From Dromaius novaehollandiae (Eukaryota): 64,000 nucleotides of DNA. The position numbers and the translations under genes were made by a program. This document shows positions 1 through 62,860 of this stretch, one piece after another. The stretch is from contig NC_088135.1 in the NCBI RefSeq assembly GCF_036370855.1, forward strand, positions 1 through 64,000, in the 5' to 3' direction. The notes below the pieces were generated by a model. It saw only the letters and a program-made list of their open reading frames with translations, searched no databases and was not told the DNA's origin. The stretch's first letter is position 1, and each line of letters begins with the position of its first letter.

Positions 1-890
1 CCAGATCCCCCAGGGCTCCCAAAATCGCCCTTTTTCAGCCCAAAACCAGCACCCAGGTCCCCCAGGGCTCCCAAAATCGCCCTTTTTCAGCCCAAAACCA
101 GCACCCAGATCCCCCAGGGCTCCCAAAATCGCCCTTTTTCAGCCCAAAGCAGCACTCAGGCCCCCCCAGCACCCCAAAATCCCCCTTTTTCAGCCCAAAA
201 CTGCACCCAGGGCTCCCAAAATTGCGCTTTTCCACCCCAAATCAGTGCCCACAGTTGTCAGGGCTCCCAAAATCACCGTTTTTCACCCCAAAACAGCACC
301 CAGAACCCCCCAGCAACCCCAAAATCCACCTTTTTCACCCCAAAACAGCACCCAGAACAGTCAGAGCTCCCCAAAATCCCCCTTTTTCAGCCCAAATCTG
401 CACCCAGAGCCACCAGGGCTCCCAAAATTGCCCTTTTTCGCCCCAAAGCAGCACCCAGACCCAAAATCGCCCTTTTTCGCCCCAAAGCGCCACCCAGACC
501 CAAAATTGCCCTTTTTCGCCCCAAACTGGCATCGAGACCCGCAGACCCAAAATCGCCCTTTTTCGCCCCAAAGTGGCACCCAGACCCAAAATCACCCTTT
601 TTCGACCCAAAGTGGCATCCAGACCCGCAGACCCAAAATCGCCCTTTTTTTCCCCAAAGCAACACCCATACCCAAAATCACCGTTTTTCACCCCAAAGTG
701 GCATCCAGACCCACAGACCCAAAATCGCCTTTTTTCGCCCCAAAGTGCCACCCAGACCCAAAATCACCCTTTTTCAACCCAAAGTGGCATCCCCACCCGC
801 AGACCCAAAATCGCTCTTTTTCACCCGAAAGTGCCACCCAGACCCAAAATCGCCCTTTTTCGCCCCAAAGCCTCACCGGGGATGTAGCAG
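1..890. repeat. Roughly 38-40-bp satellite CCCAAAATCGCCCTTTTTCAGCCCAAAACAGCACCCAGA (family A), about 22 copies. Runs off the window start.
   Basis: Direct tandem periodicity. Confidence 0.85.
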
Positions 891-982
891 GCGCCGTTGA
901 ACCACTGCGAGGGGCCGTGCGGCTCCAGGGGGGCAGCGAGGGCCCAGGCGTCCTGCACCCGCCACCCCTCCCCCGCCGGCAC
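877..982 (-). CDS. Exon 39 (106 nt): VPAGEGWRVQDAWALAAPLEPHGPSQWFNGACYIP(G). The gene continues beyond the left edge of the window.
   Basis: Acceptor acgtggctcccgcag. Donor G|GTGAGGC. Phase 0 start matches exon 38. Confidence 0.35.
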
Positions 983-999
983 CTGCGGGAGCCACGTCT

Positions 1000-1615
1000 G
1001 GGTCCCCGCCCGGACGCCTGGGCCCCTCCCCGGACGCCTGGGCCCTTTTCCCGGACGCCTGGGCCCCTTTCCCGGACGCCTGGGCCCCTCATCCCGGACG
1101 CCTGGGCCCTTTTCCCGGACGCCTGGGCCCCTCCCCGGACGCCTGGGCCCTTTCCCGGACGCCTGGGCCCTTTCCCGGACGCCTGGGCCCCTTTCCCGGA
1201 CGCCTGGGCCCCTCCCCGGACGCCTGGGCCCCTTTCCCGGACGCCTGGGCCCTTCCCCGGACGCCTGGGCCCCTTCCCGGACGCCTGGGCCCCTCTCCCG
1301 GACGCCTGGGCCCTTCCCCGGACGCCTGGGCCCTCCCGGACGCCTGGGCCCCCTCTCCCAGATGTCTGGGTCCTTCCCGGATGCCTGGGCCCTTTTCCCG
1401 GACACCTGGGCCCCTCTCCCAGATGTCTGGGTCCTTCCCGGATGCCTGGGCCCCTTTCCCGGACGCCTGGGCCCCTCCCCGGACGCCTGGGCCCTTTTCC
1501 CGGACGCCTGGGCCCCTTTCCCGGACGCCTGGGCCCCTCCTGGACGCCTGGGCCCCTCTCCCGGACGCCTGGGCCCTTTCCCGGACGCCTGGGCCCCTCC
1601 CGGACGCCTGGGCCC
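1000..1615. repeat. 21-bp satellite CCGGACGCCTGGGCCCCTTTC (S21), plus-strand orientation. The same orientation recurs at 8250-8945 and 31440-32160.
   Basis: Tandem 21-22-nt period. Translates as DAWAPFPGRLGP in the ORF track. Confidence 0.9.
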
Positions 1616-1619
1616 TCAC

Positions 1620-1698
1620 CAGACGGCAGAGGTGGGGGCGGGTGGCCCCGGCCCAGACGAGGACGGAGCCATCGGGCAGCGCCTGGGCGTCGACGGGG
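1620..1698 (-). CDS. Exon 38 (79 nt), WD40: (A)PVDAQALPDGSVLVWAGATRPHLCRL.
   Basis: Acceptor ccgccttccgcctgcccgggag. Donor CTG|GTGAGGG. Confidence 0.4.
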
Positions 1699-1989
1699 CT
1701 CCCGGGCAGGCGGAAGGCGGCGGGGGCCCAGGCGTCCTCGGGGGCCCAGGCGTCCGGGGAAGGGGCCCAGGCGTCCTCGGGGGCCCCGGCGTCCGGGCGA
1801 GGGGCCCCGGCGTCCGGGGAAGGGGCCCTGGCGTCCTCGGGGGCCCTGGAGTCCTCGGGGCCCCGGCGTCCGGGCAGTTGGCGTCGGCCGGGGGGGCCCA
1901 GGCGTCGGGAGAGGGGCCCAGGCGTCCGGGCGCGGCCCCCCCGCCGCCGTCACCCTGCGGGGGGAGGGGTTAGAGAGGGGGAGGGGTGC

Positions 1990-60633: not shown

Positions 60634-60708
60634 CTCCCGGCCGCTCTCCATCAGCTCCCACACGGCGTCGCTCAGGGAACTGTCGCTCTCGCCGGAGGCT
60701 CCCAGGGT
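60634..60708 (-). CDS. Exon 3 (75 nt): TLGASGESDSSLSDAVWELMESGRE. Preceded by an 88-nt intron made of a 3x 18-bp repeat.
   Basis: Acceptor cgtcgtgcgcag. Donor GAG|GTGAGCCC. Phase 0/0. Confidence 0.45.
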
Positions 60709-60787
60709 CTGCGCACGACGGGGGGGGGTGAGACCCTCGTGCGAGACCCTCGTGCGAGACCCTCGTGCGAGACCCCCCCCCGCTCAC

Positions 60788-61645
60788 CTCCACGTGCCGC
60801 CGCAGGTGCCGCAGGGCCGCCAGCAGCCAGGGGCCGCGCGAGGGATCCCCGTGCGAGGGATCCCCGTGCGAAAGATCCTCGTGCGACGATGGATCCCCGT
60901 GCGACGGATCCTCGTGCGACGGAGCCTCGTGCGAAGCTTTAGGGGGGTCCCGGGGCGCCGCTGGGTCCTTGTGCCTGCCGCCGCGGGTGTCCGCTGGGTC
61001 CCTGTGCCTGCCGGTGCCGGTGTCCGCTGGGTCCTTGTGCCTGCCGCCAGCGGTGTCCGCTGGGTCCCTGTGCCCGCCGGCAGCGGTGTCCGCTGGGTCC
61101 TTGTGCCCGCCGGCAGCGGTGTCCGCTGGGTCCCTGTGCCCGCCGGCAGCGGTGTCCCCCGGGTCCCAGTGCCCGCCGGCAGCGGTGTCCGCTGGGTCCT
61201 TGTGCCCGCCGGCAGCGGTGTCCGCTGGGTCCCAGTGCCTGCCCTCGGCGGTGTCCGCTGGGTCCCAGTGCCCGCCGGCAGCGGTGTCCGCTGGGTCCCT
61301 GTGCCCGCCCTCGGCGGTGTCCGCTGGGTCCTTGTGCCCGCCGGTGATGTCATCCACTGGGTCCCTGTGCCCGCCGGCGCCGGTGTCCCCCGGGTCCCAG
61401 TGCCCGCCGGCAGCGGTGTCCGCTGGGTCCCTGTGCCCGCCCTCGGCGGTGTCCGCTGGGTCCTTGTGCCCGCCGGTGATGTCATCCACTGGGTCCCAGT
61501 GCCCGCCGGCGTGGGTGTCCCCCGGGTCCCAGTGCCCGCCGGGGGGCTCGTAGGGGCGGGGGGGGCCGCGGCCGTAGAGCAGCAGCCGCCCCCCCTCAGC
61601 CCGCGCCAGCGCCACCAGCGCCAGCAGCAGCTGCCGGGCCTGGGC
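60788..61645 (-). CDS. Exon 2, large (about 858 nt). Starts AQARQLLLALVALARAEGGRLLLYGRGPPRPYEPP, then about 27 in-frame copies of an 11-aa repeat GGH(K/R/W)DPADTAA (33-bp coding minisatellite), then DPSHGD repeats. Ends PWLLAALRHLRRHVE, donor GTGAGCGG.
   Basis: Acceptor with C14 polypyrimidine tract plus CAG. Repeat period 33 nt, a multiple of 3, with the frame kept across about 700 bp. Strong donor. Phase 0/0 links exon 1 to exon 3. The acceptor coordinate is uncertain by 1-10 nt: the G-run count in my reading disagrees by one with the ORF-track frame. Confidence 0.4.
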
Positions 61646-61699
61646 CTGGGGGGGGGGGGGGCGGTTAATTACCCCCCCGCGGCTGTTAATTACCCCCCT

Positions 61700-62750
61700 G
61701 GGGCTCTTGATTACCCCCCCGGGGCGGTTAATTGCCCCCCTGCCCCATAGCTGCCCCCCCAGCCCCATAGCTGCAGCCCCTGCCCCATAGGGCCCCATAG
61801 CCCCATAGGGCCCCTTAGTGCCCCATAGCACCCCAGCCCCATAGCAGCCCCATAGCGCCCCATAACCACCCCCCCAGCCCCATAGCGGCCCATAGCGCCC
61901 CATAGCCTCCCCCCAGCCCCATAGCACCCCATAGCGCCCCATAGCCCCCTATAGCACCCCATAGCCTCCCCCAGCCCCATAGTGCCCCATAGCCCCCCAC
62001 AGCACCCCATAACCACCCCATAGCACCCCATAGCCTCCCATAGCGCCCCATAGCGCCCCATAACCACCCCATAGCCCCCCATAGCGCCCCATAACCACCC
62101 CAGCCCCATAGAGCCCCATAGCACCCCATAGCCCCCCATAGCAGCCCCCAGCCCCATAGCGCCCCATAGCGCCCCATAGCCTCCCCCAGCCCCATAGCGC
62201 CCCATAACCACCCCCCCAGCCCCATAGCACCCCATAGCACCTCAGAACCATCCCCCAGCCCCACAGCCCCCCATAGCACCCCATAACCACCCCCCCAGCC
62301 CCATAGCGCCCCATAACCACCCCCCCAGCTGCATAGCACCCCATAGCACCTCAGAACCGCCCCATAGTCCCCCCAGCCCCATAGCGCCCCATAGCCCCCC
62401 ATAGCACCCCATAACCACCCCATAGAGCCCCATAGCACCCCATAACCACCCCCAGCCCCATAGCGCCCCATAGCAGCCCCATAGCGCCCCACAGCGCCCC
62501 ATAGCCTCCCCAGCCCCATAACCACCCCCCCAGCCCCATAGCGACCCATAGCCCCCCCAGCCCCATAACCACCCCATAGCAGCCCCATAACCACCCCCCA
62601 GCCCCATAACGCCCCATAGCCCCCCCATAGCACCCCATAACCACCCCCCCAGCCCCACAGCACCCCATAGCCTCCCCCCAGCCCCATAGCCCCCCACAGC
62701 GCCCCATAACCACCCCCAGCCCCATAGCAGCCCCACAGCGCCCCCTAGCG
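61700..62750. repeat. CCCCATAGCACCCCATAGC(G)CCCCATAACCACC satellite (CCCATAG family), in intron 1.
   Basis: Tandem periodicity. Confidence 0.85.
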
Positions 62751-62782
62751 CCCCCCAGCGGAGGGTGGGGGGGGTCCCGTAC

Positions 62783-62860
62783 CGCGGGGGGGCCGCCGGG
62801 GCGCAGCAGCAGGGCGCCGGGCCCGGGCAGGGGGGGCAGCAGCCCCACGGCGACCCCCAT
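62783..62860 (-). CDS. Exon 1 coding part: start codon and first 26 codons (MGVAVGLLPPLPGPGALLLRPGGPPA), donor GTACGG. Phase 0 end.
   Basis: Kozak context GGCGGCCATGG. GTACGG donor right after GCG codon. Inverted CCAAT box 40 nt upstream and ETS/CRE/GC-box modules further upstream. Phase matches exon 2. Confidence 0.5.

Follow-up and report, generated by a model that had tools for sequence, protein, structure and literature searches.

The question raised by the first 64,000 nucleotides (nt) of contig NC_088135.1 of Dromaius novaehollandiae (assembly GCF_036370855.1, positions 1-64,000, forward strand; this whole stretch is called the window below) is which gene lies scattered among its tandem repeats, and how much of that gene is present. 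A first-pass annotation had described a complete-looking NWD1-like gene between 877 and 62860. We conclude with high confidence, on the strength of sequence comparison, that the minus strand of the window instead carries 40 consecutive internal exons of the bird TEP1 orthologue, set in tandem-repeat introns. TEP1, telomerase protein component 1, is a TROVE, DUF4062, NACHT and WD40 protein of vault particles and telomerase.

The GC content varies between 54 and 76% across the window, and Tandem Repeats Finder (TRF) masks all of its 64 kb except 8.2 kb, spread over 59 small unique islands, from which protein-like pieces become evident on translation of the minus strand. A first Pfam scan of a rough concatenation of these islands returned DUF4062 (59.5 bits, cut-off 24.7) and, after it, a weak match to a P-loop ATPase.

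Homologue searches then pointed to the family. The four best matches of a query made of the DUF4062 and NTPase regions were named telomerase protein component 1 (three birds and one shark), with E down to 4e-104; the best 120 of its 157 matches were viewed. A draft query of 1,424 amino acids (aa), for which all 60 matches were viewed, retrieved TEP1 of Phaenicophaeus, turtles, mammals and a lizard, plus two proteins without product name, P0124 and P0122, with E from 1e-188 to 1e-99. In these two sets, every named vertebrate match was TEP1, bar one mislabelled turtle entry (P0133), and the names NWD1 and NWD2 were absent. Among the homologues used below, P0121 is the TEP1 of Phaenicophaeus (cuckoo family, 2269 aa), P0123 and P0125 are turtle TEP1, P0127 is colugo TEP1, P0124 is the duck protein (1556 aa) and P0122 is a reptile-like sequence.

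The similarity is colinear over nearly the whole product. A profile hidden Markov model (HMM) of TEP1, for which nine sequences of turtles, a lizard and mammals were used, gave 22 matches, on the minus strand only and strictly colinear, its positions 755 to 2178 running from window position 57616 to 8048. The duck, cuckoo-family and turtle proteins, compared by tblastn with the repeat-masked window, produced a matching colinear series; against the unmasked window, tblastn of bird proteins was swamped by low-complexity matches, a difficulty solved by repeat masking or by the TEP1 HMM. By BLASTP, residues 6-1728 of the spliced model aligned with residues 372-2040 of colugo TEP1 in one high-scoring segment pair (1,792 columns, 33% identity, E = 0), and residues 52-1584 with residues 616-2037 of P0122 (40% identity). 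The alignments to turtle P0123 and colugo P0127 begin at model residues 5 and 6, respectively. Moreover, the Pfam family Beta-prop_TEP1_2nd (PF25047, the second beta-propeller of TEP-1) matched residues 1360-1621 over its entire profile (1-255 of 255), with 156.7 bits where 89 are required; in the PDB, chain 11gz_A, which bears the name Telomerase protein component 1, matched the DUF4062 region at E = 2.8e-58. DUF4062 (55 bits, cut-off 24.7) and WD40 (96 bits, best stretch 1133-1167) were also recovered on the spliced product, and DUF5920 (28.6 bits, cut-off 27) when the N-terminal exons were scanned alone. The domains follow one another as DUF5920, closing the TROVE-proximal region, then DUF4062, a divergent P-loop/NACHT-like NTPase, a helical region and WD40 propellers. 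It is because of the TEP1 propeller family, the colinear BLASTP alignments and the match to the TEP1 chain that we name the gene TEP1.

A complete NWD1/NWD2-like gene, in which an N-terminal DUF4062 would be followed by NACHT and WD40 from a start ATG at 62860, has next to no chance of being the right reading. An ATG is indeed present at 62860, and the order of DUF4062, P-loop NTPase and WD40 seen here is also that of NWD-family proteins. Against this stand the names of the matches viewed (the best 120 of 157 and all 60), all the strong ones being TEP1, together with the TEP1-specific propeller and the PDB chain. A protein of the NWD type would start at DUF4062, but seven in-phase exons lie upstream and align to the part of TEP1 that precedes this domain; TEP1 homology and a splice acceptor are found upstream of the ATG, and the final window exon closes on a donor, not on a stop. 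The earlier description was thus right about a minus-strand multi-exon gene with a DUF4062, P-loop NTPase and WD40 architecture in satellite introns, and wrong about its orthology.

The TEP1 gene model was built by fixing exon frames by homology and then choosing AG/GT boundaries. It replaced a homology-free dynamic-programming splice chain, based on unmasked bases and splice-site strength, which misassigned the frame of many exons, all frames being open at such a GC content. The chain comprises 40 minus-strand exons from 62921 to 877, each preceded by AG and followed by GT, with 39 of 39 junctions in phase. Its 5447 nt of exon (median 127 nt) give 1815 codons and no stop, vs 13.1 stops expected from composition; none of 2000 shuffles had fewer than three stops, and the remaining five frames of the spliced sequence hold 1-15. 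The 39 introns, of 79-4645 nt each, total 56,598 nt, of which 93.4% are TRF-masked (per-intron median 96%), and tandem repeats approach donors to a median of 12 nt and acceptors to a median of 26 nt.

Much of the first-pass annotation survives in this rebuilt chain: introns are tandem arrays, all junctions are phase-compatible, and stop codons at the junctions, which it had named as refuting, are not seen in the 1815 spliced codons. Its sizes for exons (about 6 kb) and satellite introns (more than 56 kb) are close, but the exons number 40, not 39, and three of them lie wholly in TRF-masked sequence (54707-54824, 22957-23135 and 19411-19533). It had also given every exon a polypyrimidine-AG acceptor and a GT(A/G)AG donor; AG and GT are universal, but the consensus was overstated, since 26 of 40 donors read GT[AG]AG, 38 of 40 acceptors are YAG, the other two being GAG, and about eight acceptors are without a clear pyrimidine tract.

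The exons are given below from 62921 downward, with residues of the spliced model, HMM matches with their independent E-value (i-E) where noted, and tblastn or protein matches; a slash marks an exon boundary. L001 and L002 denote the loci of Lagopus muta (ptarmigan) and Cuculus canorus (cuckoo).

Exon 1, 62783..62921, minus strand: residues 1-46, TROVE-proximal; acceptor ccccccccccag/G, donor GCG/gtacgg; internal ATG at 62860.
Exon 2, 61490..61645, minus strand: residues 47-98; phase 0; 3' end in an in-frame 33-nt repeat (GGHWDPGDTHA); donor tentative.
Exon 3, 60788..60877, minus strand: residues 99-128; GAG acceptor, in-frame SHGDP repeat; weakest exon of the 5' end, tentative.
Exon 4, 60634..60708, minus strand: residues 129-153; tblastn to P0121 residues 414-437, 58%; acceptor gcgcag/, donor /gtgagc.
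Exon 5, 59881..60005, minus strand: residues 154-195; tblastn to P0121 73%, P0003 66%, P0123 53%; BLASTN to L002.
Exon 6, 59223..59285, minus strand: residues 195-216; start of DUF5920 match; tblastn to P0121 and P0003, 52%.
Exon 7, 59002..59139, minus strand: residues 216-262; proline-rich linker at its end; tblastn to P0121 501-543, 63%; BLASTN to L001.
Exon 8, 57435..57608, minus strand: residues 262-320; DUF4062 part 1; HMM 755-809, i-E 7.5e-22; duck 80%; PDB 11gz_A.
Exon 9, 56828..56924, minus strand: residues 320-352; DUF4062 part 2; HMM i-E 1.8e-10.
Exon 10, 56031..56149, minus strand: residues 353-392; DUF4062 part 3; HMM i-E 2.6e-08; duck 75%.
Exon 11, 55554..55670, minus strand: residues 392-431; HMM i-E 3.4e-09; duck 77%.
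Exon 12, 54707..54824, minus strand: residues 431-470; wholly TRF-masked; HMM i-E 1.7e-11.
Exon 13, 53663..53830, minus strand: residues 471-526; Walker A GAPGDGRT; HMM i-E 3.1e-07.
Exon 14, 51455..51660, minus strand: residues 527-595; NACHT core; HMM i-E 1.6e-10; P0005 79%.
Exon 15, 50029..50170, minus strand: residues 595-642; Walker B LVVLVDDAD; HMM match; duck 59%.
Exon 16, 49185..49358, minus strand: residues 643-700; HMM i-E 3.1e-08.
Exon 17, 48341..48433, minus strand: residues 701-731; HMM i-E 1.5e-09; turtle 68%.
Exon 18, 48121..48250, minus strand: residues 732-775; helical region; HMM match; BLASTN to L001 and L002.
Exon 19, 45344..45494, minus strand: residues 775-825; helical region; HMM match; P0005 59%.
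Exon 20, 44034..44170, minus strand: residues 825-871; HMM i-E 2.9e-07.
Exon 21, 42729..42817, minus strand: residues 871-900; HMM i-E 1.6e-08.
Exon 22, 41260..41374, minus strand: residues 901-939; tblastn to turtle 59%, P0121 49%.
Exon 23, 38546..38873, minus strand: residues 939-1048; 21-nt coding minisatellite at 38679-38776; tblastn to P0121 1201-1284; BLASTN to L002, 570 bits.
Exon 24, 36790..36916, minus strand: residues 1048-1090; first WD blade region; HMM 1537-1569, i-E 4.5e-05.
Exon 25, 33940..34064, minus strand: residues 1091-1132; within the continuous BLASTP alignment to P0122.
Exon 26, 32185..32284, minus strand: residues 1132-1165; WD40 repeat; duck 68%.
Exon 27, 31266..31421, minus strand: residues 1166-1217; HMM i-E 8.4e-08.
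Exon 28, 28965..29186, minus strand: residues 1218-1291; tblastn to P0127, P0124 and P0121; single frame.
Exon 29, 26941..27109, minus strand: residues 1292-1348; HMM i-E 3.4e-11.
Exon 30, 25959..26177, minus strand: residues 1348-1421; start of TEP1 second propeller match; HMM match.
Exon 31, 22957..23135, minus strand: residues 1421-1480; wholly TRF-masked; HMM i-E 1.3e-09.
Exon 32, 19411..19533, minus strand: residues 1481-1521; wholly TRF-masked, in a 5-kb array; HMM i-E 1.1e-03; P0121 68%, duck 65%.
Exon 33, 14973..15080, minus strand: residues 1522-1557; HMM i-E 3.7e-05; duck 64%.
Exon 34, 11558..11684, minus strand: residues 1558-1600; duck residues 1033-1136, 39%.
Exon 35, 9920..9987, minus strand: residues 1600-1622; duck 67%.
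Exon 36, 8961..9117, minus strand: residues 1623-1675; BLASTP of model 1631-1729 to P0121 1951-2043.
Exon 37, 8057..8220, minus strand: residues 1675-1729; two in-frame 20-nt copies of an intron satellite (DPGVRGGPGVRG); HMM i-E 2.2e-05.
Exon 38, short version, 6344..6417, minus strand: residues 1730-1754; internal acceptor cccccccag/CCC in phase 0, donor GC/gtgagt; ambiguous.
Degenerate 5' half of the ancestral exon 38, 6418..6600, minus strand: TEP1-like reading in the other frame; TGA in the downstream frame.
Exon 39, 1620..1698, minus strand: residues 1754-1780; GAG acceptor; tblastn to P0122 2219-2256, duck 44%.
Exon 40, 877..982, minus strand: residues 1781-1815 plus one base; donor CCG/gtgagg; duck residues 1419-1437, 53%.

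Exon 2 resembles cuckoo-family and turtle TEP1 sequences, and in exon 3 PWLLAALRHLRRHVE is similar by eye to cuckoo-family KCLLEAARELEAALQ.

Several observations weigh against this model or against the assignment to TEP1. The zero-stop result is slightly biased, because the open frame partly guided the choice of splice sites. GAG acceptors precede exons 3 and 39, and exon 2 has its donor inside a repeat. The stretch from about 6600 to 6344 reads as TEP1 only across a frame switch, and the in-phase short exon 38 drops an estimated 55-65 residues relative to the duck and turtle proteins. The TROVE domain is not within the window, and would lie outside it. Of the three Pfam families named in the first-pass annotation, DUF4062 and WD40 were recovered on the spliced product, but NACHT reached only 17.8 bits for a cut-off of 26.7, although spanning positions 4-162 of the 167 of its profile. 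Likewise, of the two NTPase motifs announced, Walker B is present (LVVLVDDAD), but Walker A reads GAPGDGRT, with arginine in place of lysine. Finally, the gene model is drawn from sequence only.

How much of the gene is present can be answered from its two ends. The ATG at 62860 is an internal methionine, residue 21 of the model, inside an exon 1 which opens at a strong acceptor (ccccccccccag/G), no start codon being present upstream. By eye, the first window residue falls near residue 340 in the Phaenicophaeus protein, and the alignments put it at about 372 in colugo and 566 in turtle; since it aligns so far into its homologues, roughly 340-590 N-terminal residues, including the TEP1 N-terminal repeats and TROVE, must, if these alignments hold, lie beyond position 64000. 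DUF4062 had been presented as an N-terminal module, which it is not, because seven exons (62921-59002), encoding the preceding part of TEP1, come before the DUF4062 exon. Exon 40, at the opposite end, closes on a donor site, which places the rest of the gene beyond position 1. Past the point matching the end of exon 40, both the duck protein and P0122 run on for about 115-125 residues, and about as many C-terminal residues would be expected beyond the window; positions 1-870, below exon 40, are tandem repeat. The gene is thus cut at both window ends and not complete: of the bounds first given for it, 877 stands as the last donor of the model, but 62860 does not stand as a start.

The weakest places within the chain are exons 38 and 39. 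Comparison with the duck, cuckoo-family and turtle proteins implies that there was probably one ancestral exon 38 of about 85-92 codons (up to about 6600), the 5' half of which is TEP1-like in one frame (AERR...SPVLRLL) and the 3' half in another (PGLLALAADGSLWG...LRPLA), this second frame carrying a TGA further upstream. The switch sits in a G11-CCG-C8 run at 6441-6420, and may be either a 1-nt homopolymer assembly error or a real frameshift. The short version retained here opens at an internal acceptor (6417) that happens to agree in phase with exon 37, and includes LLALAADGSLWG, similar by eye to the duck, cuckoo-family and turtle sequences; a single open frame from a GAG acceptor to the donor was rejected, as it loses this conserved strand. 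Exon 39 has alternative phase-1 CAG acceptors at 1827 and 1845, inside an in-frame 18/21-nt array of the PDAWAP type (1723-1930), and P0122 has SPDAWVP where this adjoining array reads PDAWAP-like units. A reading that enters at the strong acceptor at 1954 and crosses the array to reach exon 39 would require two frame shifts, and is kept as an alternative.

Whether such a gene is still functional deserves attention, given its composition. The spliced coding sequence has 81.6% GC, and 96.4% at third codon positions (GC3); in the product, lysine is reduced to 0.3%, isoleucine to 0.5% and asparagine to 0.3%, while glycine, alanine, arginine and proline together reach 52%. Arginine at the Walker A position (G-x4-G-R-[TS]) is found in the window and in 6 of 6 bird sequences from four orders (including P0001, P0002, P0003, P0121 and P0124), vs lysine in 10 non-avian sequences (shark, tuatara, lizard, turtles and five mammals). 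GC-biased evolution is a likely driver of this change, because of the scarcity of lysine, the abundance of glycine, alanine, arginine and proline, and the GC3 of 96%. As the Walker A lysine is arginine, the NTPase of bird TEP1 may be impaired. Divergence is rapid as well: the DUF4062-NACHT segment is 52-67% identical between bird orders vs 87% between two mammalian orders, and the window product is about equally distant (52-63% identity) from all bird orders sampled, ptarmigan being no closer than duck. Together with the lack of the CCGGACGCCTGGGCCC satellite at the ptarmigan and cuckoo loci, this speaks weakly against a galliform source.

These traits could be read as those of a decaying, non-functional copy of TEP1, a unitary pseudogene in the making, to which the ancestral exon 38 (a frame switch and an in-frame TGA, both in its 5' half), the sub-threshold NACHT score and the repeat units within exons 2, 3, 23 and 37 would also contribute. 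We consider this improbable. The Walker A arginine and the fast divergence are common to all sampled birds, and are therefore traits of the lineage, not of decay at the window locus. Moreover, 1815 codons remain free of stops where 13 would be expected, AG/GT and phase are kept in 40 of 40 exons, and the TEP1 propeller lies far above its cut-off, while a 1-nt assembly error is plausible in the G11..C8 run and an in-phase acceptor bypasses the switch. We therefore retain an orthologous TEP1 gene as the preferred reading.

Some recognisable arrays in the introns of this TEP1 gene are listed here without strand.

Intron 13 array, 51859..53624: 37 copies of CC(A/T)6GG within units like CCATATATGGGCATGGGGGAGGGGCTT.
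Intron 18 array, 45542..48071: 35 copies of CCATATAAGG in a 28-nt unit also bearing GGGCGGAGC.
Related CC(A/T)6GG-rich array regions in other birds: L001 21041-24077 and 44348-47629; L002 19659-20853 and 27171-27879.
Satellite of 20-21 nt with core CCGGACGCCTGGGCCC, 6712..7995: one of at least 10 arrays, in both orientations.
Further arrays of CCGGACGCCTGGGCCC: 1009-1616, 1723-1930, 8254-8958, 26181-26924, 31445-32182, 36948-37812, 44175-45276, 48447-49164 and around 54-57 kb.

The 16-nt core CCGGACGCCTGGGCCC occurs 419 times (at most one mismatch) vs 0.02 expected, often beginning a few bases from a donor; the satellite is common to many introns, and is therefore not private to one of them. 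Neither the ptarmigan nor the cuckoo TEP1 locus contains this core. Introns 13 and 18 together hold 72 CC(A/T)6GG (CArG-like) motifs vs 5.4 expected. On the sense strand of the introns (62782-983; sense is minus), G amounts to 44% and C to 24%, and canonical G-quadruplex motifs, counted without overlap, number 749 vs 62 on the antisense strand, a 12-fold sense excess. A scan of the window against Rfam at gathering thresholds gave no match. ARAGORN proposed two tRNAs of 95 nt each on the minus strand of intron 7 (Arg-ACG at 57656-57750 and Cys-ACA at 57780-57874), which are probably false positives: their length is odd, the Cys anticodon is non-standard, and Rfam has no tRNA there.

Repeats also reach into coding sequence. 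Exon 23 contains a 21-nt array of about 4.5 units in one open frame (38679-38776), exon 37 two satellite units (8100-8210), exon 2 units of 33 nt (61490-61545) and exon 3 units of 15 nt (60835-60877); the 18/21-nt period of the array adjoining exon 39 (1723-1930) is likewise made of multiples of 3. Exon 37 gives 174 BLASTN matches to introns. Conversely, exon ends are copied into introns, as judged by BLASTN matches above 42.1 bits, the threshold of Hron et al. (2026; PMC12954441): the last 53 nt of exon 2 recur 13 times in intron 2 (e.g., 61358-61410; best 83 bits), the first 44 nt of exon 25 recur four times in intron 24 (e.g., 34176-34219) at 100% identity, and three copies of the beginning of exon 1, including the branch point and the pyrimidine tract, lie upstream (e.g., 63146-63218). 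Such copies, which include splice signals, are potential decoy splice sites, as far as their sequence indicates. The repeated TGACGTCACTTCCG upstream of exon 1 was considered as a promoter; a copy of the branch point (CTGAC), the pyrimidine tract and the beginning of the exon accounts for it better.

The TEP1 locus has a like layout in Lagopus muta (89% TRF-masked, on a 0.84-Mb record, with a gene model of 587 aa over 52 kb) and Cuculus canorus (79% TRF-masked, on a 1.0-Mb record, with at least two adjacent gene models); such record sizes fit a location on dot microchromosomes, without proving it. In the ptarmigan, exons 9-19 occur twice in tandem (12189-28881 and 34579-53162), with a 500-N gap in the locus; this doubling may be either a segmental duplication or an assembly artefact. 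Whether the window layout is itself partly artefactual, its arrays being mis-sized, collapsed or duplicated around true exons, has to be weighed here, since the homopolymer-linked frame switch and the ptarmigan block beside its gap would suit such an explanation, and Hron et al. caution that local variation may be technical (PMC12954441). We hold it to be very improbable: exon order in the window is complete, colinear and without duplication, the layout recurs in independent assemblies of two other bird orders, and repeat introns were verified with raw nanopore reads (PMC12954441). Errors of array size would, in any case, leave the identity of the gene as TEP1 unchanged.

Some arrays are related between species. 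That of intron 13 aligns to an array which, in the ptarmigan, closely precedes exon 14 (68% identity over 418 columns, E 1e-33); it also matches within cuckoo intron 13; a CC(A/T)6GG cluster lies just downstream of cuckoo exon 18, and the cuckoo locus has two more, in intron 16 and upstream of exon 8. Because introns 13 and 18 in cuckoo and intron 13 in ptarmigan carry related CC(A/T)6GG units, position-specific satellites, or their seeds, might have persisted since before the split of the bird orders. Taken jointly with the proposal that the Walker A arginine, which appears to be fixed in the bird lineage, maybe marks an NTPase-dead scaffold, this is a tentative idea which we regard as rather unlikely. 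A possible constraint on persistent arrays would be the G-quadruplex bias of the sense strand or SRF-type CArG motifs.

TEP1 was reported absent in birds in 2013 (PMC4054807). It then figured among the 274 genes listed as missing in birds and has since been annotated in one or more of the chicken assemblies GRCg6a, GRCg7b and GRCg7w, but four new chicken genomes still did not yield it (PMC11061957). Both the recovery of bird TEP1 and the satellite-intron layout are thus already known from the literature. A database of 5.8 billion sequences yielded no protein above about 63% identity to the window product, so that TEP1 of the source species seems to be unannotated there. The claim that the gene escapes annotation therefore agrees with the record (PMC4054807; PMC11061957), with this database gap and with the fragmentary cuckoo and ptarmigan models. 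The window corrects a label, since it contains a part of TEP1, a classic gene "missing in birds," and not a new NWD1-like gene. It is one more recovered missing-gene case, with its full intron context, and a worked example of how annotation after repeat masking fails, three exons being masked here and the cuckoo and ptarmigan annotations being fragmentary. As the general phenomenon is already published, the value of this work lies in a curated exon map and a few leads, which are not findings: the Walker A change in birds, the coding-exon repeats, the related arrays of orthologous introns and the sense-strand G-quadruplex excess.

From a mechanistic point of view, the TEP1 locus would give rise to a pre-mRNA exceeding 62 kb, in which the small GC-rich exons (GC3 96%) would be recognised via short flanking splice signals. 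Small-RNA binding via TROVE and scaffolding by the propellers are known for TEP1 from established mouse work, and bird TEP1 may act in the same way, by analogy with the mammalian protein.

Compared with vertebrate TEP1, the window product shows colinear similarity over about 1,800 residues to the turtle, lizard and mammalian proteins, with DUF5920, DUF4062, a NACHT-like module and a TEP1-type propeller in matching order. It differs in being only 33-46% identical to non-avian TEP1, with an extreme GC bias, a near-loss of lysine, the Walker A arginine and in-frame exon repeats. NWD1 and NWD2 share the broad architecture class of DUF4062, STAND P-loop NTPase and WD40, but are not the closest family by the names of the matches viewed, and both the upstream exons and the propeller specific to TEP1 assign the gene to the latter. 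Among GC-rich genes missing in birds, which include leptin and TNF (lists are discussed in PMC11061957, PMC5470226 and PMC8449477), TEP1 fits by its very high GC content and fast protein evolution, with nothing fundamentally different.

The closest known system for the layout is the "sequence stuttering" described by Hron et al. (2026, Genome Biology and Evolution) in genes of chicken dot chromosomes, whose introns consist of imperfect local tandem repeats with a median coverage of up to 93%, sometimes seeded from a neighbouring exon (PMC12954441). TEP1 is not named in the text of that paper or in its text-form supplementary files. The window layout is this published stuttering of avian dot-microchromosome genes: introns are TRF-recognised imperfect local repeats, exons stand as islands, and parts of exons 1, 2 and 25, with splice sites, are copied into the adjacent intron. 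It nevertheless departs from the published description in several respects. There, repeat blocks are reported not to enter exons, whereas exons 2, 3, 23 and 37 of the window hold in-frame units. A 20-nt satellite is here common to many introns, in both orientations. Expansion was inferred to be specific to each species (PMC12954441), whereas intron 13 arrays of the CCATATATGG type occur in the window species, ptarmigan and cuckoo, and CC(A/T)6GG clusters of intron 18 in the window species and cuckoo, which sits uneasily with a purely species-private expansion.

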